From: an uncultured delta proteobacterium
GTDB taxonomy: Bacteria > Desulfobacterota > Desulfobaccia > Desulfobaccales > Desulfobaccaceae
Length of the DNA: 64,000 bases
NCBI GenBank assembly: GCA_963777875.1
Contig: CAVZSK010000022.1
Coordinates: 119,353-183,352 of the forward strand
Direction: 5' to 3'
Shown: piece after piece, positions 3,077 through 61,624 of the stretch
Position numbering within the stretch: position 1 is the first letter of the stretch
How the letters are laid out: each line of letters starts with the position of its first letter
Translations under genes and position numbers: made by a program
The notes under the pieces: model-generated
Told to the model about the DNA's origin: nothing
The model's input: the letters and a program-made list of their open reading frames with translations, nothing else
Database searches by the model: none

Positions 3077-3705
3077 ATGCCCCGGCCGATCTCTATCTAC
3101 AACGGTTGCAGTGGCTGCCCTATCTTACCCAGGAGGAGTGCCGGGCTGCCGGAGCTGAAAACTGCGAAGATTTTTTGGGACGCCTACAAAACCGGAGTCT
3201 GGAACTCAAAGATGCTCCCGGTTTATCTCCCCACAAGCGGTATGCCTTGCAATTGGCTTTGCAGGGGGTGGAATTGGTACCGCCGGTGGAGGCCATGGCA
3301 TTGCCCCAGCCCACCCAACCGGGGTTACATGAGATCAATGCCCCGGGCCTGCAGGCGCCGGTATTGGTGAGCGGCAATAGTGAGATTACCCTGACGGTGC
3401 TGAGTGCGGTGTTGGCCACGACGGTGAGCCCATTCTATCTTCTGTTGGTGGATACCTTGGGGGACACCCTGGACATGGCCCTGATTTACGAAAGATTCAC
3501 GCCGGCCAAGGTGACGGCCGCGGTGCACGAAGCACACCTGGCGGATAAGGTCCAGCATCGCACCCTGATTATCCCGGGGCTGGCCGCGGCGCTGGAGCAG
3601 CCCTTGGCCACCGCAGCGGGTTGGGAAATCCGGGTGGGGCCGATCTGCGCCTTGGAACTGCCGCTGTATTTTGGGGAGTACTGGCAGCCGCCCCTGGGCA
3701 GCTAG
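3077..3705 (+). CDS. Small AcsC/CdhE/HgcA-like corrinoid-binding-domain protein (frameshift just after the ATG)
   Basis: SD AAGGAG precedes ATG 3077; one added base gives MPRADLYLQRLQWLP. Motifs PGLHEIN..APVLVSGN, YLLLVDTLG, KVQHRTLIIPGLAA and GWEIRVGP match the PF03599-type corrinoid domain. Confidence 0.8.
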
Positions 3706-9206: not shown

Positions 9207-11212
9207 TTGCGGGACCTCCTCTTTCTGGGGCGGCCGGTCTGGCGCATGTCGATGAGCGTGGACATGATGCGATCATAGAGGGCTTCGGCGGCGGTCTCCC
9301 CGGCCTGGAGGCGCCGTTGTAAGAGATTGGCCAGATGTAGGAAAAAGTTGGCTATTTTCTGGTCTGGACGCTCGAAATAGCAGAATTTGTCGATCAACTG
9401 GTGGATGGTTTCCAGGGAGGCGGTTTCGAAATCGGCCAAATGGTTGATCATAAATTGCAGCAGTAAGGTTTCATAATCCTCAAGGAACTGGGAGGCAAAA
9501 AAGTAGACGAAAGGGGATTCGAGGAGATCCGGTAATCTGGAGAACGGGACATACTCATCGAGCTGGCTCAGGAGTTGGTCAAGACTGCGGGTCCGCTCAT
9601 ACAACCGTTGCAGGAGACGTTGGTAGCCGGCGTGAGTGAGGTAGCCCTCGGGAAAGCACAGGGCCAATTCCTGCAGAGGCTTCACCTCGGCATACTCCTG
9701 CAACTCGGCCAGGCTGCGGGTCAGGGTCTGCATGCCGCCTTGACAGTTGCGCTCTTTGGTTTGCCTGACCTTCTTGCCTGTTTCAAACTTGAGACTGATG
9801 GCGCTGCTTACCAGGAGCAGACCGAGGTTGCGGCTGACCTGGCTGATAAAAAGCTGCCGGAGCGAAGCCTCGTTGGGATAGAGTTGGAACAGGGGCTTTA
9901 TGCGGTGCAGATCAGGGAAAGGCAGGATATCCGGATCCAGGAGGAGTTCCTGGATCTGCTGATCACCGGGGTACGGGAGCTGCCGGAGAATTTCTTTGGC
10001 CTGCTTCCTGAGGCTGGGGTGGATGTCAAGATCCCTGGCAAGCAGAGTTAGGATGGACAGCTTGACCCCGGCAACCCCGGCAGCAAAGACCAGGGGAAGG
10101 AAATCCTCCCAAAACGTATCGTCATCGTCCAGCCAGTCTCGATCTTCGAAGAGAATGGGGTCCATAACCCGCATCAGGTCGATTTTTTCCCGGGGCTTTA
10201 ATTCGGCCTGCAACCGGCCGATCTCATTGATAAGGCGGAGATAGGCAGTGCGCAGCTTGGCCAGGAAGCGGGAAGAGGGCTCGAAGGTGTTTGATTTCAG
10301 CAGTTTTCTGATCTTCCCCAGGGCCAGGGCTTGACTGTCCAGGCCCTGGGTCCAGCTCTGTTCCAGGGCAGTCAGGTACTCGGCCTCGGAGACGAAGCCT
10401 TCAGCCTGCTGGCGGCTGTAATCCTGGAGTTTGGCCGCGTCCGGCCCAAAGGTCTGGGAAGAGAGAAAAGGCAGAAAGGTGAGGAGATATAACAGGGTGT
10501 CAAAGTCTTCGGTCTCCCACAAGCGTTGGCAACACTGCCAGAGCTGGTAACAGAAGGGATGGAGCAGGGCAGTGCGGACGGCGGGCTCCCAGGTTTGGGC
10601 TACCTGAGCCAGCAGCGTATCGGCATGTTTGAGTTGATTGGCCCCAAAGCCGATGAGATGGGGGCTGATGCCGCCTTTGCGGTTTAACTTACGGAGCTGG
10701 TTGATAGTTTCCCCAAGAGAGATAAGAGCCGTAGCCAAGGGGTTGGGTTGGACCAGGGCGGCCAGGTCGTTGTAGGTTTTGCCGGTGACCTTGTCCGGCT
10801 GTTGGATGAGCAGGTTGAGAAGGCGGCTGAGTTTCCGTTCCGAAACGGCAGCGGGGGGCTGGTTGAGCAGTTTTTCCCGGAGCATCTGGGCCGGGGGGCT
10901 CAGGCCGGTGAGAGCGGCCATCTGGGAGCGGACGTCGCGGCCGGCGAAGAAATCTTTTAAGCAGCGGATAAAGACCAGGTCCGGTAGCTCGGGGGCCTGG
11001 GGCTGTGCTTCCAGGCGGTGCCAGAATTCCTGTAACTGGCGGGGCAGACGCAAGGCCTGGCGGCAGAGGTAGCGCCAGGCTTCCTGCCACTGGGCGGGGT
11101 AGTGCTGAAGCTGATCACTTTGGGTGACGAGCTGGACCCAGTCCCAGTATTTGCCGGTACGCCAGAATTTTTCCAGATCTTTGGCAAGGCGTTTTTTCTT
11201 TACTTTAGCCAC
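9203..11212 (-). CDS. Hypothetical 669-aa helical protein in the Hsp70 operon
   Basis: Intact ORF overlapping both neighbours; Leu/Gln-rich; no motif recognised. Confidence 0.8.
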   Translation of the reverse strand: MAKVKKKRLAKDLEKFWRTGKYWDWVQLVTQSDQLQHYPAQWQEAWRYLCRQALRLPRQLQEFWHRLEAQPQAPELPDLVFIRCLKDFFAGRDVRSQMAALTGLSPPAQMLREKLLNQPPAAVSERKLSRLLNLLIQQPDKVTGKTYNDLAALVQPNPLATALISLGETINQLRKLNRKGGISPHLIGFGANQLKHADTLLAQVAQTWEPAVRTALLHPFCYQLWQCCQRLWETEDFDTLLYLLTFLPFLSSQTFGPDAAKLQDYSRQQAEGFVSEAEYLTALEQSWTQGLDSQALALGKIRKLLKSNTFEPSSRFLAKLRTAYLRLINEIGRLQAELKPREKIDLMRVMDPILFEDRDWLDDDDTFWEDFLPLVFAAGVAGVKLSILTLLARDLDIHPSLRKQAKEILRQLPYPGDQQIQELLLDPDILPFPDLHRIKPLFQLYPNEASLRQLFISQVSRNLGLLLVSSAISLKFETGKKVRQTKERNCQGGMQTLTRSLAELQEYAEVKPLQELALCFPEGYLTHAGYQRLLQRLYERTRSLDQLLSQLDEYVPFSRLPDLLESPFVYFFASQFLEDYETLLLQFMINHLADFETASLETIHQLIDKFCYFERPDQKIANFFLHLANLLQRRLQAGETAAEALYDRIMSTLIDMRQTGRPRKRRSRK

Positions 11213-12921
11213 GTTCCAGCAGCCCCTCTGCCGCCGCCTCGATGAGCGCTAATAATTCGTCTTCCAGATTATCGAGCTGTTCGCCGGCCGTTTCTATTTG
11301 GAGGGCTTGCTCGTAGTCGGCCACCAAGCGGTGCAGATTTTCCTGGACGCTGCCGGGCAGTTGGGGATTGGCCAGGAGATTGCGGGCTTTCTCGATGATG
11401 TAGTTGACTACGTGCGGGCCCGGAGTTTCACTAGCTTCGTCGAGGACTTTTTTCCGGCGGATATCGAGGGTCACTTCTTTGCGGTTGTTGGAGCCCTTTT
11501 GTTCGGCGGTGATACGGACCAGACCTTCCCGGTCATAAGCGAATTCGATGACAACCGGGGAACGGGCGGGCGCGGATTTCAGGGGAAAGTTAAAACTACC
11601 CACCATGACATTCTCGAGACAGGAAGGCTCTTCCCCTTGATAGACATCGACATTGACACCTGGCTGATCGGGATATACGGTGTAGTACACTTCGGCCTTG
11701 CGGGCGGGAATCTTGGTATTGCGCCGGATAATAATGGAAAAAAAATCGGGCTCCCCGGTTTCCGGGTCGATCTGATCGACGGTCCGGACACCGAGGGAAT
11801 GGGCGGTGACATCCAGAAGGATATGGCCCAGGGGCTCACCGCTGATCAAGCCGCCCTGAACGGCGGCGCCCAGGGCCACACAGAGGTCGGGATCAATGGA
11901 GTGATAGATGGGCTGCTGGAACATTTCCTGGAGCATGGCTTGGACCATGGGTGTCCGGGTGGCGCCGCCGACGAGGAGAACCTTGCTGATCTCATGGGGT
12001 TGGAGATTGGCTTCCTGGAGGGCGTCCTGGACCTTGGCGGCGGTTCTGGCCACTAAGTCTCCAGTGAGCTCTTCGAATTTGCTCCGGCTGATCTCCAGGC
12101 GCAGGTTCAAGGGCTTGCCGTTAACCAGGCAAATGGCGGGTTCGGAAATCTGACAGTAGGGTTGATCGGAGAGGGTAATTTTGGTTTTTTCGGCAATATC
12201 CCGCAATCGTATCTGGGCGGCGAGGTCCCAGTCCACTGTATCTCCCGCCTTAGCGGCCAGTTCTTCCTGGAAAAATTGCTGGAGCCGGTCATCGAAATCA
12301 TCGCCGCCGAGGGCGGTGTCGCCACTCGAGGCCAACACTTCCTTGATTTCGCCTTTGACTTCTAAAATGGAGACATCAAAGGTACCGCCGCCCAAGTCAT
12401 AGACCATGATATAGGGACTGTCGCTCATCTGCAGGGAGGAGGCATAATCATACATCAGGGCGGCGGCGGTGGGTTCGTTGATGATCCGGACGACTTCCAA
12501 GCCGGCCAATTCACCGGCCTGGATGGTGGCCCGGCGCTGGGCATCATTGAAATAGGCGGGGACGGTGATGACCACCTTTTTGATTTTCTCCCCGGTCACC
12601 TGGGAGGCCTGAAAGACCAGATGGTTCAGGATAAAGGAAGAAATTTCTTCGGGAGAAAATGTTTGGGTGCCGAGACTCACCCTGAGTGTTTTGCCCCATC
12701 AAGCGTTTGATGGACCGTACGGTGTGCTGCGGAAAGGCTGCCAGGCGGTGGCGGGCCTGGCGGCCAACGATGATGGCCTGGGCGGCCTCGTCGAAGCTGA
12801 CGATGGAGGGCACCAGGGGCTGTCCGGCTTCAACGGGAAGGGCCACTGCCTTGCCGTCTTGAATCCGGGCGATGGTGGAATTGGTGGTGCCTAAATCAAT
12901 ACCGTAAATTATGTCGCGCAT
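11205..12921 (-). CDS. Hsp70 family chaperone (specialised DnaK paralogue; frameshift near 12680)
   Basis: GIDLGTTNS, VITVPAYFNDAQR, INEPTAAAL, YDLGGGTFDVS, LLVGGATRTP. Confidence 0.93.
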
Positions 12922-12922
12922 A

Positions 12923-13438
12923 TTACCCCGTGGGAAGCGGCTGGCGGTCACCGACCACAACTTTGGCGGCTGTACTGACCACGTTATTGAAGAGATAGCC
13001 GGGCTGCACTACCTGGAGGACGACCAGATGGCTGGCGCCCGGGGCCTGATTGGCGATGGCGTCGTGGAGGTTGGCATCAAAATTTTCCCCCGCCTGGCGG
13101 ATCATCTCTACGCCGACCGAGGAGAGCAGGCTATCCACCTTTTCCCAGATCATGTCAAGGGTCTCGAGCTGTTCCGGGGCGGTGGCGGCCAGGGCCTGGG
13201 CGTGATAAAAAAAGGCGTCGGCCAGGGCGAAGTAGGGTTCCAATTCAGGCCGGCGCTGGTCCAGGATGGCTTTGGTGAGGTGGCTTTTCAAGGCGTCCAG
13301 AAACAGATTCTGACGTCGGGCCTGTTTTTTCAGATCGTGGAGTTCAGCCAGCACCGGGGCCAGGGGGTCTGGCGGTTCCGGGGCCGGGGGGCGCTTCTGG
13401 AAGATTTTGAAGAATTTGGGAAACATGTGATGGTTCAT
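12923..13438 (-). CDS. grpE: GrpE-like nucleotide exchange factor
   Basis: GENFDANLHDAI and VVQPGY...AKVVV C-terminal GrpE motifs; directly upstream of the Hsp70 gene. Confidence 0.85.
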   Translation of the reverse strand: MNHHMFPKFFKIFQKRPPAPEPPDPLAPVLAELHDLKKQARRQNLFLDALKSHLTKAILDQRRPELEPYFALADAFFYHAQALAATAPEQLETLDMIWEKVDSLLSSVGVEMIRQAGENFDANLHDAIANQAPGASHLVVLQVVQPGYLFNNVVSTAAKVVVGDRQPLPTG

Positions 13439-13569: not shown

Positions 13570-16506
13570 TCAGGCGGAGCGGAGGAACTCCTTGACCAGG
13601 CGGTCCCAGCCCAATTCGGGGCATTGGGCGAAGACGTCGTCGATGAGGGAACCACCGGCCTGGAGGGTGGCGCCCACCGAGGGTTCCAGCATGGCCAGGA
13701 GGCGCGCGGTCTCTTCTTCTATCCAGGCGGTGCTGCCCTCGCCGGAGACAAGATTTTCCAGGTCCGGCCTGAGGTTGGTGGGGGCGACGACCATCATCCA
13801 GCCTTCGCCGTAGGGGTCGTCGTGGGTCAGCCCGGGCCGTTTCAGGACCTTGTGGTTCACCTCTTCGATGATTCCGACTACCGGCGCCAGCACCCCAGCA
13901 CCGGCTCCCTGGCGGGCGAGCGCCATCCCCACCTTGTCGCGACGAATCTCCTGGCCGATGATCGGCAGCCTGATGTCATCGCTGGCGCCCAGGACCTTCT
14001 GGGAAAAGTCATCCATGCCGATACGCACCCGACCGCCGGACTCCAGGGCTACCCAGGTATGCCCCCGGTGGAGGTAGCGGGAAGTGGCCACCTTAATCCC
14101 AAAGACCTCCTCGAGGCGCTCCAGCATCTTTGCCAGATTGACGGCCAGCCCTTCCGAGGACGAAATGACGCCAGCAGGTTCTGTCCCGCCAAGGAGCAGG
14201 TTGAGTGCGTCTTTCAAGAAGTGCCGGGGCAGGAAAGCCGTTCCCGGGCCGACCCGCTTGGTTACCAGGGCCGTGGCGGTAACGATGCCGTCCCGGCTGG
14301 TGGTTCTGATCTGTTCTCCGGAGCGGAGGCCCAGATCCCGGGCGTCGGCGGCATTGATTTCGATAATCACCTCGGGCTTTTCCTGGGACTCAAAGGCCGC
14401 AGTATAGGTCCGGGGGACGGTACGGTGCTCCCTGTAGGTCATTCCGGTGGTCAGCCAGACGGGGTAGGCGTCGTCGGTGGCGGCGTTCAGGCGGCGGAGG
14501 TTGGCCATTAAGGCATCCACGGCGTCGATGAAGTCTCCGGGGGCGTTGGCGGCCAGGGAGTGAAAGAGGAGGCGGCCGGGGTCAAGACCGGCTTCCGCCA
14601 AAAGTTCCTGGGTTTGCTCCACGTCCCACTGGGCGCACTGGTTGCCGTGGGTTGATTTGCAGTTGTCCTGGGGGCAGGACATCACCAGGACCCCGTCGGC
14701 CCCGGAGTTGAAGGCCTGGAGGAGATAATCGGGGTCAACCTTGCCGGCGCAGGGCACTTTGATGGGAGTGAAGCCCAACGGCAGGGAGGCGGCATGGAGC
14801 TTCACGGCGCTTTGATAGGCCTCCCAGGCGGAGTTGCGGCACATAAAGGCCACAATCCGGGGGCTGAGGTTTGGGTCGAAGGCCGCCATTTGGGCTGACA
14901 TCTGGTCGTCGGTGAAATTGCGGACCTGGATGGCGTCGTTGGGACACTGGCTGGCGCAGATACCGCAGCCCTGGCAGGCCAGCTCATTGATAACGGCCCG
15001 GTTATCCCAGGTGATGGCGCCATGGGGACAGAAGCGGTAGCAGGTCAGGCAGAAGACGCACTTGCCCCGGTCCACCACGGCCCGTCCCTGGGGGGCGACG
15101 GCCTGGCCCTGGGCCAGGAGGTCCTGGATCTCATTGACGACGGCGTTGGCATCGGTAATGGTCTCTTCGTGATCCATGATCCCCCGTCCCGGTCCCACGA
15201 CATAGATGCCTCGCCGGGGGGTGGCCACCGGGGCATGATGGACATTGCCGGACTGGAGAAAGCCCTCGGCGCTCAGGGGCAGGCGGAGGAGTTCGGCCAG
15301 AGCGGCGTTTTCCCTGGCCGCCTGGTATGGTTCATCGCAGACCACCAGGTTCGCCTTCAGGGTCAGATTCTCCCGGATGCTGGGCTCGAGGAATTCTACC
15401 CGGAGACCCTCGTCCGCAACGCTGATGCTTGGGCAGTCATGCAGTTTGATGAGCACCAGGCCCTCGTCCTGGCTCTCTTGCATGGTCCGTTGGAGATCCG
15501 GGCCCGCCACCTTGGTGCTGCCTACCAGGAGATACACCCGGCTGCCGGCCGCCAGCAGGCGGGATGAGGCCTTTAAGGCCCGCTCCAGGGCGAGAGGATG
15601 ACTCTCTCCGGCCAGGCCCAACAGGATGACGACGGTTGCCGGAATATCGGTCTCTAAGGCGAAGGGCGGCAACGCTTCCAGGCCGGTCAACGAGATTACC
15701 CCGGGATGGCTGGGGACAGCATAGGGTTGGGGATCTTGTTGGAGTTGGAGTTCAGGGGCCAGGACCACGGCTCCCACCCTCTCGGTGAGGCGGTATGACG
15801 GGGTATCCAGGCGCACGGTAAAATTACCGGCGACGCCGTCGACATTATTGATCCGGGCGGCAGACACAGTCTTGATGAGTTGATGTTCCTGGACCTGCTG
15901 GATGAGCCGGGCGGGAGAGTCAGAGACACCTTCCTCCCCGGAGTACTCCCAGGTCAGGGGATTGAGTTCCGGGTTGGGGCTGGCCAGAATGACCGGGTAG
16001 CCCGACTCGGCCAGATCCAAGGCGGCTTTGAGAGCGGCGCAGGAATCGCCCCAGATCAGGATGTGCCGGCTGACGGGGATCTTCTGGGTGAGAATGGGGT
16101 TGGCCAGACTGGCCTGGGAGACGGCCTGGCGGATCATTTCCAGCCCTTTGGCGGTCCGGCTGCCCGGCTCCCGGTTTGCCAAGGCGGCGGTGAGGTCCAC
16201 GGGCAGGAGATATTCCGGGTTCAACTTAAGCTCATCCCTCAACAGGCGGGTCACCCCGGCCCCCCGATATTCCGGGTCTTTAGCTACCAGGAGCACCGGC
16301 TGGAGCTCCTGGTCCTGGCCAAGGAAGGTACGGAGCTGCTCCTCCTGGGCGGCCGTGGGTTGGGTTGTATCCATGGACAAGACCCGGCAATTCGGCAGGC
16401 TGGCCACTGCCTGGGAAAAATCTTGGGGATCAATTCCGGCCCCGGCCAGCTCCGGGCCGGACATGAGCAGGACATTGAGCGGTCTTAACGAATCGGCTTG
16501 AATCAT
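13570..16506 (-). CDS. Multidomain fusion: degenerate HdrA/QmoB-like FAD domain + 2x[4Fe-4S] + MvhD + molybdopterin dinucleotide-binding domain + GcvH-like domain
   Basis: CVFCLTCYRFCP and CQGCGICASQCP; MvhD motifs AFMCRNS, VPCAGKVD, GADGVLVMSC..DNC; YPVWLTTG..EINAADA..LGL..G...TSRDG; YLHRGHTWV..VRIGMDDF..DPYGEGW. Confidence 0.88.
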   Translation of the reverse strand: MIQADSLRPLNVLLMSGPELAGAGIDPQDFSQAVASLPNCRVLSMDTTQPTAAQEEQLRTFLGQDQELQPVLLVAKDPEYRGAGVTRLLRDELKLNPEYLLPVDLTAALANREPGSRTAKGLEMIRQAVSQASLANPILTQKIPVSRHILIWGDSCAALKAALDLAESGYPVILASPNPELNPLTWEYSGEEGVSDSPARLIQQVQEHQLIKTVSAARINNVDGVAGNFTVRLDTPSYRLTERVGAVVLAPELQLQQDPQPYAVPSHPGVISLTGLEALPPFALETDIPATVVILLGLAGESHPLALERALKASSRLLAAGSRVYLLVGSTKVAGPDLQRTMQESQDEGLVLIKLHDCPSISVADEGLRVEFLEPSIRENLTLKANLVVCDEPYQAARENAALAELLRLPLSAEGFLQSGNVHHAPVATPRRGIYVVGPGRGIMDHEETITDANAVVNEIQDLLAQGQAVAPQGRAVVDRGKCVFCLTCYRFCPHGAITWDNRAVINELACQGCGICASQCPNDAIQVRNFTDDQMSAQMAAFDPNLSPRIVAFMCRNSAWEAYQSAVKLHAASLPLGFTPIKVPCAGKVDPDYLLQAFNSGADGVLVMSCPQDNCKSTHGNQCAQWDVEQTQELLAEAGLDPGRLLFHSLAANAPGDFIDAVDALMANLRRLNAATDDAYPVWLTTGMTYREHRTVPRTYTAAFESQEKPEVIIEINAADARDLGLRSGEQIRTTSRDGIVTATALVTKRVGPGTAFLPRHFLKDALNLLLGGTEPAGVISSSEGLAVNLAKMLERLEEVFGIKVATSRYLHRGHTWVALESGGRVRIGMDDFSQKVLGASDDIRLPIIGQEIRRDKVGMALARQGAGAGVLAPVVGIIEEVNHKVLKRPGLTHDDPYGEGWMMVVAPTNLRPDLENLVSGEGSTAWIEEETARLLAMLEPSVGATLQAGGSLIDDVFAQCPELGWDRLVKEFLRSA

Positions 16507-16669: not shown

Positions 16670-16685
16670 AGCAAAAATGATGCCA
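16670..16685 (-). promoter_or_regulatory. Sigma-54 -24/-12 promoter of the fusion gene
   Basis: Minus strand TGGCATCATTTTTGCT (GG-N10-GC), about 165 nt upstream of ATG 16506, with an AT-rich region further upstream. Confidence 0.7.
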
Positions 16686-16875
16686 TAATTAATTCAGCTT
16701 GATGTTAGCAGGTTTTCTCTCATTGGTGCAAAAACCTGATGGCCCGATTTGTCGGGAAATGCAACAGTAATTTCGTATATTTTTTAACATACTTGATATC
16801 ATTGACAATATTAATGCATAACAATTCAACAGTAATTTCCCTTAGGTGACTAATTTTACTTTAGGGAACAAGACG

Positions 16876-18141
16876 TCAGGTCAGACGATTTCCGGTTTTG
16901 GCCTCCAGGTATTGGCGCACCTGCTGGACTGACTGGGTGGCCTGGGCGATGCACTCCAGGATACTTTGGGGACCGGCGGCGGTCCCGGCCAGGAACACGC
17001 CGGGGGCTTCGGTCTGGCGCGCCCTCCTGACCGTCTTTTAAGAAGCCGTCGGGATCCAGTTTTAGGTGGAGCATTTCCGCCAGTTTGGGATTGTCCGGGC
17101 CGGGGGCGATCCCTACGGCCAGGACCAGGAGATCAACCACCCGGTAGAGCCCCTGGCCGCTGGCTTCGTCTAAAAATTTCAGCCTTAAGCTGCCGTCGGC
17201 CGTGGCGCTCAGATCTCCCGGGAGGGCCCGGATCAATTCAATTTCCTGCCTGACAGTCGCCTCGAACTCCTTAGGATCAGGCCCGACGTTTTGTAGATCC
17301 ATGTAAAAGGTGGTCACCTGGCACTCCGGCCAGCGATGGCGGATGAGCCGGGCCAGGCGCAACCCATAGGCACAGCAGACCCGGGAGCAGTAGGTATGCT
17401 CCAGATCCCGGCTGCCCACGCATTGGATGAAGGCCAGATGGCGCACCGGCCGGCCGTCGCTGGGTCGGACCAGACAGCCCGCCCTGCTTAATCATTTCCT
17501 CCAACTCCCACCCGGTGATGATGTTGGGTAAGATAATAATTGGTATAATCCCCCCGGGCAGGAGGGGGCGCGGGTTTATAGCCGGTGGCGACGATGAGGC
17601 TGTCGGCCTCCAGGTCTGAAACCGTCTCGGGCCGGGACAGGTCGATGGCCTGGGTGGGGCAGATTTCCTGGCAGCGGCGGCAGGAGCCGTCTTGAAAATA
17701 GAGGCAGGCGGCCGGATGCACCGCAAAGCGGGGATGATTTTCGGCGGAGGCCGCAGTGATAATGGCTCCCGGGGCGGGGCACTCCTCCAGGCAGAGGCCG
17801 CAGTTGGTGCAGCGCTGGGGATCGATGACCCGGGGCTGGGACTTCAGGGTCAGGTGCAGCTGGTCGTTTTCAGAGCGGCTTTCCACCAGCTCCGTGTGGG
17901 CATACAAGGTGAGGTCCGGGGGCGGCCAAGAGGTCCCGCAAACCCTGTTCGACCCGGCAGGCGCCGCATTTCTGGCAGACGTCGGTGGCCTTGCAGCCGA
18001 AGCTGGCGGCCAGGCCGCCGAAGAAGGGGCTTTTTTCCACCAGGACCGCCGGGAGCCCGGCCCGGCTCAACTCCAGGGCCGCGGTAATCCCGGCAATGCC
18101 ACCGCCCAGGACCACCACCGGCTTAATTGTATCGTTTTCAT
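16876..18141 (-). CDS. hdrA: Short HdrA-like / QmoA-like flavoprotein (several frameshifts)
   Basis: VVVLGGGIAGITAA, CKATDVCQKCGAC, CTNCGLCLEECP, FIQCVGSRD..YCSRVCC; reconstructed end GVFLAGTAAGPQSILECIAQA...*. Confidence 0.8.
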
Positions 18142-18279
18142 GGGAGTTTCCTTCCCAAATAAAGTTCTGAGTTCTGAGTGCTGAATTCTGCGTAAAAGAA
18201 AATACAATCCTCATACAATACTCCACCCCAAGGTGATAGGGAAAAATACAAGAGAAAACCTTTTGCATTCGGCATATTC

Positions 18280-19168
18280 TTAGACACCGGCTTTTTCCAG
18301 GATCAGGGCCATCAGGTCGCCGCGGCCCCGGGCCTTGACGTAGACGCCGTCGGCCAGTTTTTGCTCTTTGATCTCTTTGATCAGACGTCCGGCCAAGGCG
18401 GCGCCCTTCTTTAAGACTGTCTTCAGGGTCGGGGTCGCTTAGTTCCTGGACGAGGTCCGCCGGCAGGGAATAGACCTTGCGGAGCTGGCCCTGGCTGGCC
18501 TGTTCCACTTCCGAGGCCTTGGGGACCTTGACGCAGGCCAGGACCTTGACGTTCTGGTCGACCCAGTTGCTGCCGGAAGTGGCTGAGCTTCTTGAGATCG
18601 AAGATAGGGGCGGTGATGAAAAAATCGAGCCCCGGCTGCCAGCTTTTTTCTCACCTTGAGGAGCTGGGGACCGAGCGGGTCGGCCTCGGGTATGAGGACG
18701 GCGCCCAGACAGAATTGAGGATTTCCTTGTAACGGCTGGTCGGCGCTGTCATGGCCGGCCATCAGGCCCCGGGCGATTTGCAGGAACTGCACCGAGTCGG
18801 CGTCATAGACCGGCTTGGCGTCGGGATGATCCCCCAGGCTGACAAAATCGCCGCTGATGACCAGGATATTTTCCAGGCCCAGGGCGCCGGCGCCCAGCAG
18901 ATCACTTTCCAGGGCCAGACGGTTGCGATCCCGGCAGGTCATGATGCAGCAGAGGTTCGGCCCCGGCCTCTTTTACCATCCGGGCCGCGGCCAGGGCCGA
19001 CAGCCTCATCTTGGCATGCTCATTGTCCGGAATCCCAAAGGCGGTTACCTTGCCGTTCACCGCTTTGAGGGGCGCCAGCATACCCTCCAGGTCGATGCCC
19101 TTGGGAGGTTTAATTTCCATGACGATGGGGAACCGACCGCCTTCCAATGCTTCTTTGAGTTTACTCAT
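18280..19168 (-). CDS. metF: Methylenetetrahydrofolate reductase MetF, divergent (several frameshifts)
   Basis: EIKPPKG, PDN...MRLS, TCRDRNRLAL.SDLLGA, SGD...GDHP.AKPVYD.DSVQ; reconstructed end LILEKAGV*. Confidence 0.85.
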
Positions 19169-19842
19169 GGGCGAAGTATCTCCTCTTGTATGCCGGGTGG
19201 ATCACGGTGCCGGGGGTGGTGCTCCGTCCGTGAGGATGCAGCGGCAGGATGGGCTCGATCTGCTCCAGCCGGCCCTGCTGTTCCAGCCTGGCATAAATCT
19301 CACACCAGGCGCAGTCCCGCTCCGGATTGACCTCGCACTTGCCCTGGATGTTGCCGCCGCAGGGGCCGTTGAGCAAGCCCTTTGGGGCACATGGTCTGGG
19401 GGCAGATCCCCCCGGTAATCCCCAGGTAGCATTGATGGCAGGACCGGCAGCGCTCGGTATACAATCCCGCCTCTTCATTGACGCCGATAAAGGTGGTGTT
19501 GAGGGCCGGAATGACCGGTTTCATGCCGGGCAGGGCTGCCAGAAACTGCACGCCGGCGCCGCAGGCCATGGAGATGACTGCGTCATAATCCGCCGCGACG
19601 TCGCTCAGGGTCTGCATAAATTCCCGGTCGCATTGGCGTTCCACCGTCATCTCGCCGATGTCCGGGTGCTTGCCTTCCTGTCCCCAGGCGAGCTTCAGTT
19701 GCGAGGCCAGCAGCCCCACTTCTTTTTCCCCGCCCACCAGGCAGACCGCCACACAGGTGCCGCACCCGGCAATCAGGACCTTTTCAAAGGGGGCCACGGC
19801 CGCCTTGATTTCTGCAAATGGTTTCCGTTCCGCGATAATCAT
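19161..19842 (-). CDS. metV: MetV (MTHFR Fe-S/Zn small subunit), frameshift near 19385
   Basis: MIIAERKP, GCGTCVAVC..GG, RQCD, ACGAGVQ, ERC..C..C, CPKGLLNGPCGG...GKCEV...DCAW. Confidence 0.9.
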
Positions 19843-20301
19843 TGTTGCACCACCAGTTGTTGTTCTTCCGGGACCACTGTCTCCGGATGGACATTTCGGG
19901 TTCAAGGGATTGGGTCCCAGCGCTTTTATTTTTTCCGTCATTTCTTTCACTGCGGCCACCCATTTGGGGGCGTCGGAGGCCGCGATCTCATACATGGCCA
20001 GGCGTTCGGCGCCCAGGCCGCATTCATCCAGTAAGTGCTGGGCATATTCCACACGTTCGTGAGCTCTCAGATTTCCTTCCAGGAAATGACAGGTCCCGGA
20101 TTCTCAGCCGCCCACGAAGATGCCATCGGCACCGGCCTCAAAGCCCTTTAAGATGTGGATAATGTCAATACGTCCGGTGCACAGGTACTTGACGATCCGC
20201 ACGTTGTCCGGATACTGCATGCGGGCCGAGCCGGCCATATCCGCGGCCGTGTAGGTGCAGTAGGTGCACAACAGGGCCAGTATCTTGGGGGAAAATTCCA
20301 T
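19839..20301 (-). CDS. mvhD: MvhD/FlpD hydrogenase delta subunit, selenocysteine-containing (UGA at 20104-20106)
   Basis: LLCTYCTYTAAD, LCTGRID, then GADGIFVGG-UGA-ESGTCHFLEGN in frame with the downstream ORF; UGA occupies the conserved Cys of GADGV.v.GC...CH; SECIS-like hairpin follows. The 3' end is inferred from a likely indel. Confidence 0.9.
20071..20087 (-). promoter_or_regulatory. Bacterial SECIS-like hairpin of mvhD
   Basis: mRNA AUUUCCU-GGA-AGGAAAU: 7-bp stem, loop starts with G at nt 24 after the UGA. Confidence 0.7.
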
Positions 20302-20320
20302 TATTGCTCCTCAGCCTACA

Positions 20321-20351
20321 AGGCGGGATGCGCTTCGCTTTCCCGCCCTAC
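20321..20351 (-). repeat. REP-like palindrome (GTAG family)
   Basis: Reverse complement GTAGGGCGGGAAAGCGAAGCGCATCCCGCCT, between hdrL and mvhD. Confidence 0.75.
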
Positions 20352-20364
20352 GGAATTTAGTTAA

Positions 20365-23300
20365 TTAATGGAGGCCTGCTTCGGGCCAGGGTTCGCCGAT
20401 GGCGGTTATTTTGGCAATGAATTGCTCATCCAGGTTGTGGTTTACCGAAATAGCCTTGCGGGGGCAGGCGCTGGCGCAGTTGCCGCATCCCTGGCAGGCT
20501 GCGGGGTCGATGACCACCACGCCTTCGCTTTCGTCCATCCGGGGAACGCCGTAAGGACAGGTGCGCAGGCAGGTCAGGCAGGCGACGCACTGTAACGGGT
20601 TCACCTGGGCCACCGACCCGGCCACATACATTTCTTTCTGAGACAGGATCCCCAGGGCTCGGCCGGCCGCCCCCTGGGCCTGGGCCAGGCTCTCTTCCAG
20701 GAACTTGGGACTATGGGCCAGACCGCAGAGGAAGACGCCGCTGGAGGCGAAATCCAGGGGCCGCAGTTTCAGATGGGCCTCCATGAAAAAGCCGTCCGCG
20801 TCAAAGGGCAGCTTGAAGACCTTGGCGATTTCCCGGCTCATGGGATGGGACCTGATGGCGGTGGACAGGACCAGATAATCGGCTGTCAGGGCCAGATCAG
20901 CCTGGAGCGACTGGTCAAAGACCGATATCCTGAGGCCCTGGTCGGTGGACTCCACCTCCGGTTTGCGCTCCAGAGCGAAGCGGACGAACTGCACCCCCAG
21001 GTCCCGGGCTTTTTTGTAGTAAATTTCCTTGAGACCGTAGGTCCGGATATCCCGGTAAAGGATAAAGACCTGGGCGGCCGGATTACTTTCTTTGATGGTT
21101 ATGGCATTTTTGATGGCCTCGCCGCAGCAGGTGCGGCTGCAATACTGGTACCCGGTTCCCGGGAGCCGACGCATTGGATCATGACAACCTTGGGCGTGGC
21201 GCCCAGGGACTCGGGTTGTTCGGCCAGCAGGTTCTCCATGTCCGTTTGGGTGAGGACCCGGGGACTCTGGCCATAGAGGTATTCCTGGGGTTGGTATTCC
21301 ATGCCGCCGGTGGCAACCACTACGGCCCCGTAATCCACCTCCCGGCGGCCATCGGGTGAATCCAGGGTGCTGTGGAATTTGCCGATATGGCCGGAGACAT
21401 TCAGGACCCGGGTGTTGGGCCACCAGTCGATCTCGGGGTGGGTTTCCACCCGGCGGACGAGTTCGGCAAGATACGCTTGAATGTCATGGCCTTCCAGGGT
21501 GCGGCGCATCTGCCGGGCCAGGCTGCCGGCCAGACGGTCCTGGGCTTCGGTGAGGTAGACATGGAAACCGCTGTCGGCGATGGTCAGGGCGGCACGTCAG
21601 GCCGGCCAGGCCGCCGCCCACGACCAGGGCTTTTTGACTTACCGGGAAGAGCTGGTCGTCCAGGGATTTGAGAATCGCGGCCCGGGCCACGGACATCTGC
21701 ACCAGTTCCTTGGCCTTTTCGGTGGCCATGGCCGGCGACCCCTGGTGGACCCAGGAGTCCTGGTCCCGGATATTGGCCATTTCAAACAAGTACTTGTTCA
21801 ACCCGGCCTTGCGCAGATTTTCCTGGAACAGGGGCTCGTGGGTCCGGGGGCTACAGGAGGCCACCACGACCCGGTTCAGGTTTTCCCTCTCAATTACCTC
21901 CCGCATGTTGTCCAGAGAATCTGTGGCGCAGGTGAAGGTATAGTGATCGGCGTAGACCACATGAGGGAGGGTGCGGACATAATCGGTCACTGCCGGGCAC
22001 ATCCACTATGGCGCCAATGTTGATGCCGCAGTGGCAGACAAAGACGCCGATGCGGGGCTCCTGGCCACTGACCTCCTGTTCCGGGGGATATTCCTGTTTG
22101 GTAAGCAGGGTGCCCCGGGCTTCGGCGAGCAAGGCCGAGGCGGCCCCGGCGGCGCCGGAGGCCTGGCCGACGGTCTCCGGGATATCTTTGGGAGACTGGA
22201 AGACCCCGCAGGTGAACATTCCCGGCCGGGAGGTGGACACCTGTTCCAGGGGCGGGCTGACGACAAAGCCCCAGCGGTCTGTGTCAATGCCGCAGTTGGC
22301 CGCCAGTTCCTTGGTGGCCGGATGGGGGTTCAGGCCGACAGAGAGCACCACCAGATCAAAGATTTCGGTTTGCACCTGGCCGGATTCGTCGACGTAACTG
22401 AGTTCCAAATTTTTGGTAAGGGGGTCTTGGGCTACCCGGGAAACCATGCCCCGGACATAGCGAATCCCGTGGTCGGTCTTGGCCCGCTCGCAGTAGCGGT
22501 CGAAACCCTTGCCCTGGGCCCGCAGGTCGATGTAGAAGATAGTGGACTCGATATTGTGGTCATGCTCCTGGGCGATGATGGCCTGTTTGCTGGCATACAT
22601 GCAGCAGACATAGGAGCAATATTCCCGGCCGCAGGAGGCGTCCCGGGAGCCGACGCACTGGATCCAGGCCACCCGGCGGGGCGGCGTGCCGTCGCCGGGC
22701 CGGAGCACGTGGCCGTCATACGGACCGGTGGCAGACAGGAAGCGTTCGAACTGTAATGAGGTGACGACGTTGGGGTAGCGGCCCCAGCCATATTCAGGCT
22801 TCTGCCCGGCGTCGAAGGGCCGGAAGCCCGGAGCCAGGATCATGGCCCCCACCTCGAGCTGCCGGGTGCCGGGCTGCATGGTGTGGTCAATGGCCCCGGC
22901 CTGGCAGGCGATGACGCACTGCATGCATTCGGAGCAGCCGCCGCAATTGAGGCAGCGGTCTGCTTCGGCCATGGCCGCGGCTTCGGGATAGCCCTGATTG
23001 ATTTCGTCAAATCCCTTGATCCATTGGGCCTTGGGCAACTCGGGCATTACGGCCCGGGGCTTGAGGGCGGCGTTTTTGGGCACCGGCGTCCAGTTGCCTG
23101 TTTCCAGGGGAACGGGACGCAAGGGGAGCTCCCGGTCGGCTTGCAAATCCTGGCCATTGACATAACGGTCGATGGAGATTGCGGCCTCCCGGCCGGCGGC
23201 CACTGCGGCGATGGCGATATAGGGACCGGAGACGACATCGCCGCCGGCAAACACGCCTTCCCGGCTGGTGGCCAGGGTTACCGGGTCCGTCTCGATGAGG

Positions 23301-24837
23301 CCCCGGGGGGTGAGGTTGATGCCGTCAGCTTCGGTGATAAAGGAGAGGTTGGTCTTCTGACCGATAGCCATGATCACGACATCGGTATCAAGGGTTTGGG
23401 TTTTATTTTCCAGGTAGGTGGGAGCGAAACGGCCCTGGTCATCAAAGACCCGTTCCACGGCCCTGAGTTCCAGGCCGCTGACCTGACCGTCCCTGGCCAC
23501 AATCTGCTTGACGCCCCAGCGATGGATGATCTGACACCTTCGGCCTCGGCTTCAGCCACTTCCCAGGACGAAGCCGGCATCTCTTCCCGGGTTTCCAGGG
23601 CGATCAGGGTTACCTGGCCCCCCTGGCGCCGGGCAGTCCGGGCCACGTCCATGGCCACGTTGCCGCCGCCGATGACAGTTACTTTTTTGCCCTTAAAATC
23701 GAAGGTCTGGCCGGACGCCGATTCTTTTAGGTACTCGACGCCCCAGAGGACACCCTGGGCCTCGGCTCCTGGCACTGGCAGGCGGATGGAATCCTGGGCT
23801 CCGACGCCCAGGAAAACGGCCTGGAAGCCTCCCTTGGTGAGCAGATCGTGAATGCTGCCGCGATCGCCGCCGAGGGGAGTATTATAGCGAATCTCCACCC
23901 CCAGGCGCTGGATATAATCCACTTCCCGTTGCAGGACTTCCCGGGGCAGGCGGTAGGCGGGAATGCCGTAGCGCAGCCAACCGCCGGCTTCGGCTGCGGC
24001 TTCGAAGATCACCGCTTTATAGCCCTTGAGGGCCAGATGATAGGCGCAGCTTAAACCGGAAGGCCCGGCCCCGATGATGGCCACGGTCTCGGGCCGCTTA
24101 GGCACCTCGGGCACCGGTAGTGCCGTCCAGTCCACGGCATCGGCCACAAACCGTTTCAGGTTGCAGATGGCTATGGGCTCGTCCACTTCCTGGCGCCGGC
24201 AATCGGTTTCGCAGGGATGGGGACAGATGCGGCCGATGGTGCCGGGGAGGGGCAGCCGGTCCATAATGAGGGAGAGGGCCTCGGGAAATTTTCCCGCCTT
24301 GATGAGCTGGACGTAGCCCTGGACACTGAGATTGGCAGGGCAGCCCCGCACACAGGGGGCCCGGTCCAGCTTCTTAATGGCATAATAGGCCGGAATCGCC
24401 TGGGGGAAGTGCCGGAAGGCGGCATGGCGCGCGCCCAGACCTTCATCGAAGGTGGACGGCAGCAACACGGGGCAGGCTTCGGAACAGGCCCCGCAGGCGT
24501 TGCATTTGGCCATATCAATATAGCGGGGCTCCTGGCGGAGGGAGATGGTGAAATGACCCGCCTCACCCTCCACCTGGGCAACCTCTGACTGGGTGACGAT
24601 CTCGATGTCCGGGTGCCGGGCCACCTCGATGAGTTTAGGGGAGATCAAACAGGTGGAGCAGTCGTTGGTGGGAAAGGTCTTGTCCAACTGGGCCATCACC
24701 CCGCCGATGGAGATGTCTTTCTCCACCAGGTAGACCTTGAAACCCGCATTCGCTGCGTCCAGGGAGGCCTGCATACCGGCGATGCCGCCCCCCACCACCA
24801 TAATCGCGCCGATTTTTGTCTTATCGCTGGTCATCAT
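20365..24837 (-). CDS. hdrA: HdrL-type large HdrA: HdrA FAD/FeS domains with an inserted GltD-like NAD(P)H-binding module, about 1490 aa (at least 4 frameshifts)
   Basis: VVGGGIAG..LDKTFPTNDC; APC..GCPA, GRICPHPCE..CRR, IIGAGPSG, VIGGGNVAMD; IQCVGSRD..CSYVCCMYA; VFVCHCG.NI; CSPRTHEPLF; YCSRTCC; C-terminal ferredoxin. Confidence 0.9.
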
Positions 24838-25026
24838 ATCTTTTCGTCTTTAGTTGGCGTTGTTAAAGTTTCGTGTTTCAATAAAAAAATTAACTTAATC
24901 TTCGTCTTTCTGACATTCCTTGAAATTAATTCCTTTTCTTTCAATCTCGAAACGACAAACTGGAAACTCGAAACTATGTTTGGCCTTGGTATCCGGTCGG
25001 GGAATCGATACCCGACTTCCCCATCA

Positions 25027-25871
25027 TCACAGCAGGCCTTTGGTGCGGAGCAAAGGCCTTGGGTCCACTAAATGCCGGGCCAGCCAGCCACGCCGCCTCC
25101 GGATGTCCCAGGGCCAGGCCGATCAGCTCGGTGAAATAGAACACCGGCAGGTAATAAGTCTTGCCGGACTTCTTGGCGATGCGCCCCTGGGAGAGGTCCA
25201 GGTTCGCCTGGCACATCTGACAGGCGACCACAAAACACTCCGCCCCGCGCCGCCAGGGCCCGGTCGTAAAGGCGGCCTACCAGGGTGTCGATGAGATCCG
25301 GCCGGGACATGGCCAGACCGGCGCCGCAGCAGTCCGTTTTATAGGACCAGTCCAGGGGTTCGGCCTGTAGGACCTGGAGCAGGTGCTCCAGATCTTCAGG
25401 GTTTTCATAATCCGCCTTATCCGTGACGTCCGGGGGCCGGGAGGCCAGGCAGCCGTAATAGCCCACCGCCTTCAGCCCAAAAAGAGGCCGCACGGTTTTC
25501 TTCCGCACAACGTCCAGAAATGACTTCTGGGTGAGAAATTCCAGCAGATCCCAGACCTTGCCCCCGTTTGCAGGAGCGGCTGCCTGGACCGGGCGCGGCT
25601 CGGCTTTTTCCGCGGCCTTGAGCCGGTTAAAGCACAGAGCGCAGGGGACCACCAGGTCCAGTCCGGTTTTCCGGGCCAGGGCCAGGTTCCGGGCCGGCAG
25701 CTCCAAAGATAGTTGATGATTAATGCTGTGAGCCGCACTGGCGCCACAGCAGTTCCAATCCTCCAGTTCCGCCAGCTCCACGTCCATAAGAGGGGTAATG
25801 GCGGCAATGGAGGCGGCGTAATCAGCGGCCGTGCCTTCCAGGGAACAGCCCGGGTAATAGGATACCTTCAT
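25027..25871 (-). CDS. hdrB: Heterodisulfide reductase subunit B (frameshifts near 25245 and 25090)
   Basis: YYPGCSL, DWNCCGA, PCALC, YYGCL, DCCGA, VACQMCQANLD CCG motifs. Confidence 0.92.
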
Positions 25872-25880
25872 ATGAATGCC

Positions 25881-26510
25881 TTAAGCCCCCGTACGTTTAT
25901 AGATTAGATCAATCTCGTCCCGCCCTTTGAGGGCCGGAGGGCCAACCGGGCGCAAGCGGCCTCGTTTGAAGAGGGCCCAGCCCAACTTGGCATTTTCCCA
26001 GAGTTCCTTGATATCCGGTTGCCGCCGCAGTTTAAAAAGCGTAAAGCGGCGCATCAAGGCCACTTCCGGCAAGCGGCCGCCGGCCCGGCGGAGACTGTCC
26101 AGGAAGATACGCTGGAAGGCCGCCACCTCCGGCTGGTCAATGGCTTTGCCCTGCCGGATGGCCTCTTCTTTGAGCCAGTCCATAACCCCGGCAATATCAA
26201 TGTCGTTGGGACAGCGGGTGGTACAGGTGACGCACGAGGCGCAGACCCAGATGGTTCGGCAGCCCAGAAGCGCTTCCGTCTGACCCAGGCCGGCCAGGCG
26301 GATGACGCGGTCCGGGAGCAGGTCCATGGCAAAGGTCAAGGGACAACCCGCGGAACACTTTTTACATTGGTAACAGGCGGAAACTGAAATGGCGGCTTCT
26401 TTGGCCAGACGCTCCGGCAAGGAAAATGTCGGAACAAGAGGTTGGTTAAGAGTGCTTTCCATAAAGACCGGCTCCTGATGATCAATTGGCTGGTTTTTTA
26501 CATCACCCAT
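25881..26510 (-). CDS. hdrC: Heterodisulfide reductase subunit C
   Basis: CYQCKKCSAGCP and IWVCASCVTCTTRCP; the start may be ATG 26462. Confidence 0.92.
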   Translation of the reverse strand: MGDVKNQPIDHQEPVFMESTLNQPLVPTFSLPERLAKEAAISVSACYQCKKCSAGCPLTFAMDLLPDRVIRLAGLGQTEALLGCRTIWVCASCVTCTTRCPNDIDIAGVMDWLKEEAIRQGKAIDQPEVAAFQRIFLDSLRRAGGRLPEVALMRRFTLFKLRRQPDIKELWENAKLGWALFKRGRLRPVGPPALKGRDEIDLIYKRTGA

Positions 26511-60694: not shown

Positions 60695-61624
60695 TTAGTG
60701 GCTTCTGCGCAACTCAGTGGCCGGAAGTAGACAGGATAAGATAAACATGAGTTGTTTCTGGGTAAACTCCCCGATGTGCTCGTTAAGCCAGGGTAAATCG
60801 CCCGAAAGGATAGCAGATTTGGCCTCCAGGGACAGATTGTAGGGCTCCAGGGCCTCAGTCTGCAGGTCGATCAAGGCCCGCCGGAACTCTTTGTCTTCGG
60901 CGGTGCGGCTCAGCACCTTGAGGACCTCCCGTTTTTGGATAGACAGGGTTTTTTGATCCGCCGCGGTTGTTACCCGGGACTCTGCAGACCTTTTCTCCCA
61001 GCCTCTGGTTAAGGTTGGCAGGAAAAAATCCTGGACCAGCGGTCGCCAGCCTAACTCGGGATAATGTCCGTAGACATCATCGATGATGCTGCCACCGTCC
61101 GGGAGGGTGACACCCGTCGTGGTTTCCATGAAACTCAGCAAGCGGTGGGATTCCTGGTCAATCCAGACGGCGTTGCTCTCTCCAGAGAACAGGTTTGCCA
61201 AATTGCGCTGGAGATTATTCGCCCTTACCAAAAACAGCCAGCCTTCCTGATACGGATCGTCGTGGATCAGGCCGGGTTGCTGAAGAACCTTAGGATTGAC
61301 GGTCTCGATAATACCATCCACCGGCGCCAGGAAAGGGGCTTTGTGTCCTTGCCGGACCAGGGACATACAAATGTGATCCTGATAATAGACTTTGCCGACG
61401 TCGGGTAACTTAAGCTTGTCAGCCGGTCCCATAATTTTCTGAGAAAAGTCATCCAACCCTACTCGCACCTGATTTTCGCTTTCGAGTAACACCCAGGTAT
61501 GGCCCAAGTGCAAATAATAGTCGGTGATGGGCACCTGGAAGCCAAAGACATCCGTCATCTGAGGCGACAATGTAGGAGTAATATCTTCCCGCTTACCTTG
61601 CCCCCTATTCTTTTCCTCTGACAT
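60695..61624 (-). CDS. GcvH-like protein (no Lys at the lipoyl position) with a C-terminal NHLP/LigA-like helical domain
   Basis: YYLHLGHTWV, VRVGLDDFSQK, LAPVDG, HDDPYQEGWL; C-terminal VLSRTAEDKEFRRAL...AL..YNLS.EAK.AILSGD. Confidence 0.85.
   Translation of the reverse strand: MSEEKNRGQGKREDITPTLSPQMTDVFGFQVPITDYYLHLGHTWVLLESENQVRVGLDDFSQKIMGPADKLKLPDVGKVYYQDHICMSLVRQGHKAPFLAPVDGIIETVNPKVLQQPGLIHDDPYQEGWLFLVRANNLQRNLANLFSGESNAVWIDQESHRLLSFMETTTGVTLPDGGSIIDDVYGHYPELGWRPLVQDFFLPTLTRGWEKRSAESRVTTAADQKTLSIQKREVLKVLSRTAEDKEFRRALIDLQTEALEPYNLSLEAKSAILSGDLPWLNEHIGEFTQKQLMFILSCLLPATELRRSH

Follow-up and report, generated by a model that had tools for sequence, protein, structure and literature searches.

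We analysed a gene for a 978-aa fusion protein (positions 13570..16506, minus strand) in a 64,000-nt stretch of DNA, here called the window, from an uncultured delta proteobacterium of the order Desulfobaccales (assembly GCA_963777875.1, contig CAVZSK010000022.1). The protein joins an HdrA-like body, a ferredoxin, an MvhD domain, a molybdopterin-binding barrel and a GcvH-like domain. This five-module fusion is real and conserved; it is no assembly artefact. We consider it probable that the fusion is the large flavin-less iron-sulfur ‘B’ subunit of an HdrA-derived pair similar to QmoA/QmoB, placed at the end of a MetFV/Hdr operon (hdrCB-hdrL-mvhD-metVF) of Desulfobaccales and equipped with C-terminal docking or regulatory domains. 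For the C-terminal extension as such, a docking or regulatory role is proposed with moderate confidence.

The open reading frame (ORF; P0001) is uninterrupted over 978 aa, its coordinates including the stop codon, and has a GGAGG 7 nt 5′ of the ATG. An earlier note, made from the sequence of the window, had described five modules in one ORF with junctions near 14470 and 14120; all five are present in a single clean frame, and we placed these junctions at about nt 14481 and 14121. The modules follow one another on the minus strand. Residues 1-140 (16087..16506) are homologous to the N-terminal domain of HdrA by profile alignment and fold match, without its cluster cysteines; residues 141-470 (15097..16086) correspond to the thioredoxin-reductase-like (TrxR) domain of HdrA, with the flavin adenine dinucleotide (FAD) loop, the flavin lysine, the CVGSR-CSxxCC site and the inserted ferredoxin lost. 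A C-terminal ferredoxin domain with 2x[4Fe-4S] (residues 471-545; 14872..15096) and an MvhD/FlpD domain (residues 546-675; 14482..14871) come next, both identified by Pfam and by invariant cysteines. The extension begins with a molybdopterin-dinucleotide-binding barrel of the formate dehydrogenase (FDH) domain IV type, lacking the catalytic domains (residues 676-795; 14122..14481); it continues with a GcvH-fold domain (residues 796-930; 13717..14121) and ends with a conserved helical tail (G-G ... W ... F-L; residues 931-978; 13573..13716), which defines a lysine-less GcvH-like family.

All Pfam matches exceeded the curated cut-offs: Fer4 twice at residues 476-527, FlpD/MvhD (PF02662) at residues 551-673 with 99.2 bits against 22.3 and profile positions 1-122 of 123 covered, Molydop_binding (PF01568) at residues 684-772 with 58.6 bits against 26.8, and GCV_H (PF01597) at residues 811-930 with 66.2 bits against 22.2. 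No Pfam family matched residues 1-470. The NCBIfam HdrA models matched residues 341-675 only and far under their cut-offs (HdrA2, 232.7 bits against 1100; HdrA, 132 against 1400). The AlphaFold2 (AF2) model of the 978-aa fusion had a mean predicted local distance difference test score (pLDDT) of 80, with values >90 in the GcvH-like region.

Among 5.8 billion proteins searched, ∼38 clusters of 962-980 aa showed this complete Pfam set at 53-93% identity; several were labelled Desulfobaccales, Desulfobacca sp. or Syntrophobacterales. There were also two shorter forms, one of ∼790 residues without GCV_H and a far more numerous one of ∼676 residues without barrel and GCV_H. The full form occupied one stop-free frame in 13 of the 83 species genomes of the order, representing six genera, and was found in pieces in three more; the short 676-aa form was present in about 20 of the 83. 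When 401 genomes from across the phylum were sampled, the family, short or long, turned up in this order only. The literature we searched held no description of the five-module architecture; public databases already hold it under the generic names ‘hydrogenase iron-sulfur subunit’ and ‘QmoB’.

The quality of the assembly deserves attention, since the source genome is a metagenome-assembled genome (MAG) of 56 contigs, 74% complete. We counted ∼14 frame changes in hdrB, hdrL, metV, metF and the 415-aa HdrA-like gene (window positions 16856-26510) and one further frame change in hsp70 (region 11205-12960); several of the sites inspected adjoin G/C homopolymers. One could suspect from this that the fusion itself arose in a poor assembly, from indels that deleted the stops between separate genes. 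To this idea we gave almost no credence and we rejected it, because the ∼38 clusters, equal in length and domain order, came from independent assemblies (JGI, ENA, NCBI and Logan), because 13 species genomes carry the gene without internal stops, and because the window copy aligns in a single frame, over residues 8-970, with a 970-aa homolog on a 2.2-Mb contig. Stops between the modules, or relatives that always encode them separately, would have spoken for separate genes; we saw no such stops, and relatives keep the modules in one ORF. The frameshifted neighbours are intact in a 93%-identical contig and in other relatives; the frame changes are probably indels of long-read assembly rather than marks of pseudogenes.

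The N-terminal body is a pseudo-HdrA: the fold has been kept and the cofactors have been lost. A family profile aligned residues 65-242 with HdrA residues 60-243, and residues 310-541 with HdrA residues 407-647, in several solved complexes; the inserted ferredoxin domain (HdrA residues about 243-407) has no counterpart in the fusion. The AF2 model matched whole HdrA chains in Foldseek (E 4e-32; chain A of 8RVY, 7BKD and 5ODC) and the HdrA-like subunit of Hyphomicrobium with a template modelling (TM) score of 0.71. The position of the FAD loop reads I-W-G-D-S-C-A-A at residues 150-157, and V-I-G-A-G-I-A-G of HdrA is replaced in the family by L-V-W-G-D-S-x-A; the W152-G-D-S that stands in for the loop is encoded at nt 16042-16053 (minus strand). 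Across 80 family members W152 and G153 never vary, and D154 and S155 hardly ever do. With key residues of HdrA taken from published work (PMC12054007), including the lysine in contact with flavin N5 (K409 of the reference enzyme), we saw the lysine column vary freely (K/Q/R/A/T/G/E/S). No invariant cysteine precedes C483 in the 80 sequences, hence the CVGSR/CSxxCC cluster site is absent. Thus, among features that characterize HdrA, the overall fold was found, and the FAD loop, the flavin lysine, the cysteines of the N-terminal and TrxR clusters and the inserted ferredoxin were not. Loss of the loop and of the CSxxCC cysteines, noticed previously in the window copy (as IWGDSCAA and a missing IQCVGSR motif), holds for the family as a whole.

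The ferredoxin and MvhD modules that follow the body are intact, again as had been claimed. The ferredoxin domain is the most conserved module, and its ligands C483/486/489/493 and C511/514/517/521 are all invariant. The MvhD domain likewise keeps four invariant ligands (C556, C586, C611 and C616), at positions where solved MvhD chains (5ODC_D) also have cysteine.

The fusion is the last gene of a conserved hdr/metFV operon; its membership of an Hdr/MetFV system had been surmised in the earlier note and is borne out by the gene order hdrC-hdrB-hdrL (1492 aa)-mvhD-metV (PF12225)-metF-415-aa FAD-binding HdrA-like gene-fusion at locus L001, where the start of the fusion overlaps the stop of the 415-aa gene. 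Two loci with the short form (L004 and L005) also show this order from hdrL onward, and the contig with the 93%-identical homolog carries metF, a 418-aa FAD gene, the fusion, grpE and hsp70, in an arrangement identical to that of the window. The cognate 415-aa protein and the fusion were encoded on one contig in at least 17 cases. In the window this partner gene (16856..18141, minus strand), for a HdrA/QmoA-like flavoprotein of the 415-aa type, is broken into four frames; it is intact and adjacent or overlapping in relatives. The partner possesses GGGIAG, an extra C-x5-C-x2-C-x2-C motif, an inserted 2x[4Fe-4S] domain and QCVGSRD...YCSRVCC, all invariant in 17 cognates. It has neither the N-terminal domain nor the C-terminal ferredoxin domain, both of which the fusion has kept. 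No qmoC or aprAB was seen near the fusion; it is flanked by metFV/hdr genes at one end and, at the other, by grpE/hsp70 or by unrelated genes.

Complementary domain losses, tight coupling of the genes and the homodimeric state of HdrA lead us to infer from sequence that the 415-aa flavoprotein and the fusion would form a pseudo-dimer similar to the HdrA homodimer, with a single flavin. The fusion could then act as an electron wire and scaffold between this flavin and MetFV and HdrL/HdrBC of the acetyl-CoA pathway; given the operon, the electron-routing or scaffold function suggested earlier is a reasonable one. The last 300 residues, with no cofactor site, may serve as a spacer or adaptor (the FDH domain IV barrel) followed by a lysine-less GcvH-like domain with a helical tail, a module that would derive from a large stand-alone family repeatedly found to accompany HdrA enzymes. 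We regard the GcvH-like module as most likely a docking or regulatory module, not a lipoyl carrier.

Components of such systems have been described: the MetFV-HdrABC-MvhD complex, HdrL, HdrA types fused to MvhD, and degenerate molybdopterin proteins in hdr clusters (PMC6085437, PMC2702500, PMC12054007). A close counterpart is QmoB, a subunit of QmoABC in sulfate reducers, which shares the HdrA-derived body, the 2x[4Fe-4S] ferredoxin, the MvhD-like domain and an adjacent HdrA-like flavoprotein of ∼415 aa (QmoA); indeed, JGI annotation names close homologs of the fusion ‘QmoB’. However, the fusion has neither the FAD loop nor the cluster of the body, no qmoC/aprAB nearby and 300 extra residues. 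With HdrA of HdrABC-MvhAGD (5ODC) and the MvhD-fused ‘type Ia’ HdrA2 (PMC12054007) it has in common the three-domain fold and, as in type Ia, the C-terminal MvhD; it differs in W-G-D-S in place of GxGxxG, in a flavin lysine that is not conserved, and in the absence of the inserted ferredoxin and of the N-terminal and TrxR clusters. MetFV-HdrABC-MvhD of Moorella thermoacetica (Mock et al. 2014, as reviewed in PMC6085437) likewise combines metF, metV, mvhD and hdrCB with HdrA-type flavoproteins in one operon, whereas in the system considered here, known from its genes, a 1492-aa HdrL type replaces HdrA and a second, QmoAB-like HdrA pair is added.

The system bears on how completely oxidizing and acetogenic anaerobes couple the methylene-/methyl-tetrahydrofolate step to energy conservation, and on the second electron acceptor of MetFV-Hdr complexes. 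The operon adds to this scheme a second HdrA-derived pair with one flavin and, in one-fifth of the genomes of the order, two cofactor-less domains as well; it is thus a natural experiment on the wiring and docking of bifurcating complexes. The names ‘hydrogenase iron-sulfur subunit’ and ‘QmoB’ mislead metabolic reconstruction of Desulfobaccales MAGs.

The barrel had been described as an Fdh domain IV/FwdD-like module. It shares the beta-barrel with both FwdD and domain IV of the FDH alpha subunit (PF01568), fold matches including domain IV of Nap/Fdh as well as FwdD (PDB 5T61 among them); the fusion lacks domains I-III and the site for molybdenum or tungsten (Mo/W) bound by bis(pyranopterin guanine dinucleotide) (bisPGD). 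Domain IV of F420-dependent FdhA in Fdh-Hdr-Fmd complexes (profile E 4e-17) and FdhF of the hydrogen-dependent CO2 reductase (HDCR) were the best relatives of solved structure, while the profile match to FwdD reached an E-value of 2e-4 only. Judged by profile scores, the barrel thus resembles FDH domain IV more than FwdD. A stand-alone source protein with barrel and GcvH modules was sought; the only hit was a partial fragment of 311 aa, which probably comes from a full fusion.

Identity to an ordinary H-protein was tested by the residue at which lipoate is attached. In alignment to the Thermus H-protein (PDB 1ONL) the lipoyl-lysine column falls on Gly867 (nt 13906-13908), so the absence of the lipoyl lysine claimed from the window sequence is real. 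The domain has the H-protein fold (TM 0.90 and root-mean-square deviation of 1.5-1.8 Å against solved H-proteins) and a PF01597 score above cut-off; it differs from GcvH in the glycine, in the 48-residue helical tail and in its score of 60 bits with the GcvH equivalog model TIGR00527 (cut-off 115.85). LbpA of the sulfur-oxidizing Hdr-like (sHdr) systems (PMC6067878) is also a GcvH-like protein found with Hdr-type enzymes, but the fusion has no lipoyl lysine. When the literature was searched for GcvH/HdrA/MvhD fusions or for GcvH-like proteins without the lysine, only sHdr-LbpA and the Gram-positive GcvH-L came up, and an ESM Atlas look-up of the C-terminal module gave ‘GcvH family’ clusters only.

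To judge by its sequence relatives, the GcvH-like domain belongs to a separate, mostly lysine-less family with a tail. Stand-alone proteins of ∼293 aa from the same order, often encoded in tandem and with a cysteine-rich N-terminal region, are 56-65% identical to module plus tail, and the lipoyl column is mostly G in 101 of such relatives. In an exhaustive search 1428 cluster representatives reached E <1e-10; the names of members include Anaerolineae, Myxococcota and Handelsmanbacteria. Among the best 144 of the 1428, the tail (conserved G-G, W, F) was present in 140; the lipoyl column again held mostly G, and lysine in seven. The fusion points to a large family, mislabelled ‘glycine cleavage protein H’, that cannot carry lipoate and recurs with Hdr enzymes. 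A metagenomic protein of 940 aa (P0392) has an FAD-competent HdrA and ferredoxin fused directly to the GcvH-like module, and at locus L008 two stand-alone GcvH-like genes follow hdrA-hdrC-hdrB; together these tie the module to HdrA enzymes independently of the 978-aa fusion.

The history of the extension was followed in an unrooted tree, built by maximum likelihood from residues 1-672 (the core) of 80 sequences. Since one branch with 99% support separates extended from short forms, the extension would have been gained or lost once. Five 790-residue forms nest within the extended clade beside a full-length sequence. Past the stop codon of a 789-aa variant (L003:3045-3125) come two traces of the GcvH module, a short one of its start, in frame, and an inverted one of 14 residues from its middle (3077-3125); they show that the 790-residue lineage lost this module secondarily by rearrangement. 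Mean pairwise identity over 32 full-length orthologs was 80% for the ferredoxin, 74% for the tail, 66% for the GcvH domain, 58% for the HdrA-like core and 45% for the barrel, the least conserved module; with identities above that of the core, the GcvH domain and tail are under constraint. The extension is under selection in most of its clade; one lineage can dispense with it, and the sister clade does not have it.

Several other explanations of the extension were weighed. FwdD caps FwdB and thereby completes its site. One could therefore imagine that the orphan barrel completes a cap-less Mo/W enzyme of FwdB or Fdh type and tethers it to Hdr/MetFV, as Hdr binds Fwd in methanogens; 5T61 is, after all, among the fold matches of the barrel. 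A candidate exists: a FwdB-like protein of 424-450 aa without domain IV, found beside an FwdA-like amidohydrolase and a two-domain HdrA, in 59 of the 83 genomes of the order (and in six of the eight other genomes of this genus). In one relative the FwdB-like gene, for 424 aa, is directly downstream of the short form and followed by an FwdA-like amidohydrolase gene, and no free FwdD or domain IV was seen in five genomes checked, with fused or short forms. However, the FwdB-like gene resides mostly in genomes whose only version of the protein is the short one or that have none at all, and it is equally frequent in these two kinds of genome. It was not found in any of the five fusion-carrying genomes of genus g11 (G033, G035, G036, G040, G045) nor in G062; the two do not track each other in distribution. 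This genome (74% complete) yielded no cap-less Mo enzyme and no FwdB-like gene: its five PF00384 proteins each have their own PF01568 domain, the sixth PF01568 match being the fusion. Considering also that the barrel is far closer to FdhA than to FwdD and poorly conserved, we hold the tether very unlikely, and the link to a Mo/W enzyme suggested by the earlier note finds no support.

About as unlikely, in our view, is the idea that the GcvH-like domain is a swinging-arm carrier, lipoylated or otherwise modified, which offers a dithiol/disulfide to the CCG clusters of HdrB in the manner of LbpA. Hdr-like sulfur-oxidation genes are always linked to genes of lipoate-binding GcvH-like proteins (PMC6067878), HdrB and HdrC are encoded in the operon, and six orthologs, all from one clade, do have lysine at the lipoyl column. 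Against this stand Gly867 of the window copy, the mixture of residues at this column among the 32 orthologs (G in most, then N, S, E and R, besides the six with K), the prevalence of G, D, E or S in the wider family and the lack of any conserved cysteine in the module. Somewhat better, yet still unlikely, is the proposal that the last 300 residues are an evolutionary scar with no function of their own, left by a deletion that joined mvhD to the 3′-end of an adjacent fdhA and by later capture of a GcvH-like gene from nearby. Gene orders hdrA-mvhD-fdhB-fdhA have been reported from Desulfobacterium autotrophicum (PMC2702500), conservation of the barrel is low, short forms are common and one lineage has lost the GcvH module, with an inverted remnant just past the stop codon. 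A scar should not, however, contain a GcvH domain and tail better conserved than the HdrA-like core in orthologs down to 53% identity, nor be kept in a single frame in 13 genomes of six genera; moreover, the GcvH-like module was fused independently to another HdrA (P0392).

The reading that we prefer, a flavin-less B subunit with docking or regulatory domains, has points against it too. The six lysine-bearing orthologs of 32 mean that a modified carrier may exist in their clade. With the barrel weakly conserved and the GcvH module lost from one sub-lineage that kept the rest, the extension is dispensable at least there; about 20 genomes of the order manage the core function with a 676-aa form that has no extension. 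The heterodimer is proposed from gene order and from domain losses that complement each other. Finally, if the frameshifts in the partner genes are real, the complex is non-functional in this organism. For module plus tail (P0020:792-970; 17-row alignment), prediction of a complex with its cognate 415-aa flavoprotein scored 0.00 without an answer, which speaks neither for nor against binding.

One could speculate further about control. A sigma-54-type promoter motif, TGGCAT-N5-TTGCT, lies at 16670..16685 (minus strand), 179 nt upstream of the ATG of the fusion, inside an AT-rich spacer of ∼350 bp that separates the fusion gene from the upstream gene in this genus. It is the sole match to TGGCAY-N5-TTGCW in the window, on the correct strand, where 0.17 would be expected. 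This strict motif also stands ahead of the first gene in arrays of stand-alone GcvH-like genes at L006 (∼4884, this genome) and L009 (∼5618); a sigma-54 activator, a PAS kinase and an M54 peptidase are encoded alongside such motif-bearing arrays. Two other genomes lack the motif ahead of the fusion; the pattern is suggestive of a sigma-54 link to the fusion that would be specific to a lineage. As a tentative idea, less likely to be right than wrong, the lysine-less tailed GcvH-like module may represent a new class of Hdr partner, a cofactor-free docking accessory or regulator dedicated to HdrA-type flavin-based bifurcating enzymes, often under sigma-54 control and hard-wired here to MetFV/Hdr. 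If so, the cell would gate or redirect the electron flow of the acetyl-CoA pathway through this module.

Some observations on the relatives of the extension may be added. In the stand-alone ∼293-aa proteins (e.g. P0172 and P0217) the first ∼110 residues make up a conserved cysteine-rich region, with C-x12-C-x5-C-x2-C and further cysteines, that has no Pfam match; neighbours of their genes include those for an M54 metallopeptidase, a sigma-54 activator and a PAS kinase. Another independent fusion of the lysine-less GcvH-like module, a metagenomic protein of 1391 aa named Anaerolineae (P0373), combines three such GCV_H domains with an FAD-linked oxidase and an HdrD-like CCG module. The FwdB-like protein mentioned above, which is degenerate, is encoded in a conserved cluster (L010:7830-14767 and L005:10254-18034) that is present in the 59 genomes; the other products of this cluster are an FwdA-like amidohydrolase, an RnfB-like iron-sulfur protein, an HdrC-like protein and an HdrA of 1032 aa that has two flavin domains. 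This arrangement resembles the archaeal clusters of type II HdrA with inactive molybdopterin proteins (PMC12054007).

This genome has three stand-alone paralogs of the GcvH-like module, whose contexts (histidine kinase-like, Usp, pentapeptide and radical SAM genes) gave no direct functional clue. One of them, a 309-aa paralog of module plus tail with glycine at the lipoyl column, is encoded in the window (60695-61624, minus strand); it has a distinct C-terminal helical extension and adjoins pentapeptide-repeat and ISL3-type genes. The best-scoring canonical GcvH of the genome (L007; G000:C3:15368-15730, minus strand; 117 bits) has a long acidic tail, and its hairpin lysine is two residues nearer to the A-P motif than in the E. 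coli and Thermus proteins; it may be no ordinary H-protein.

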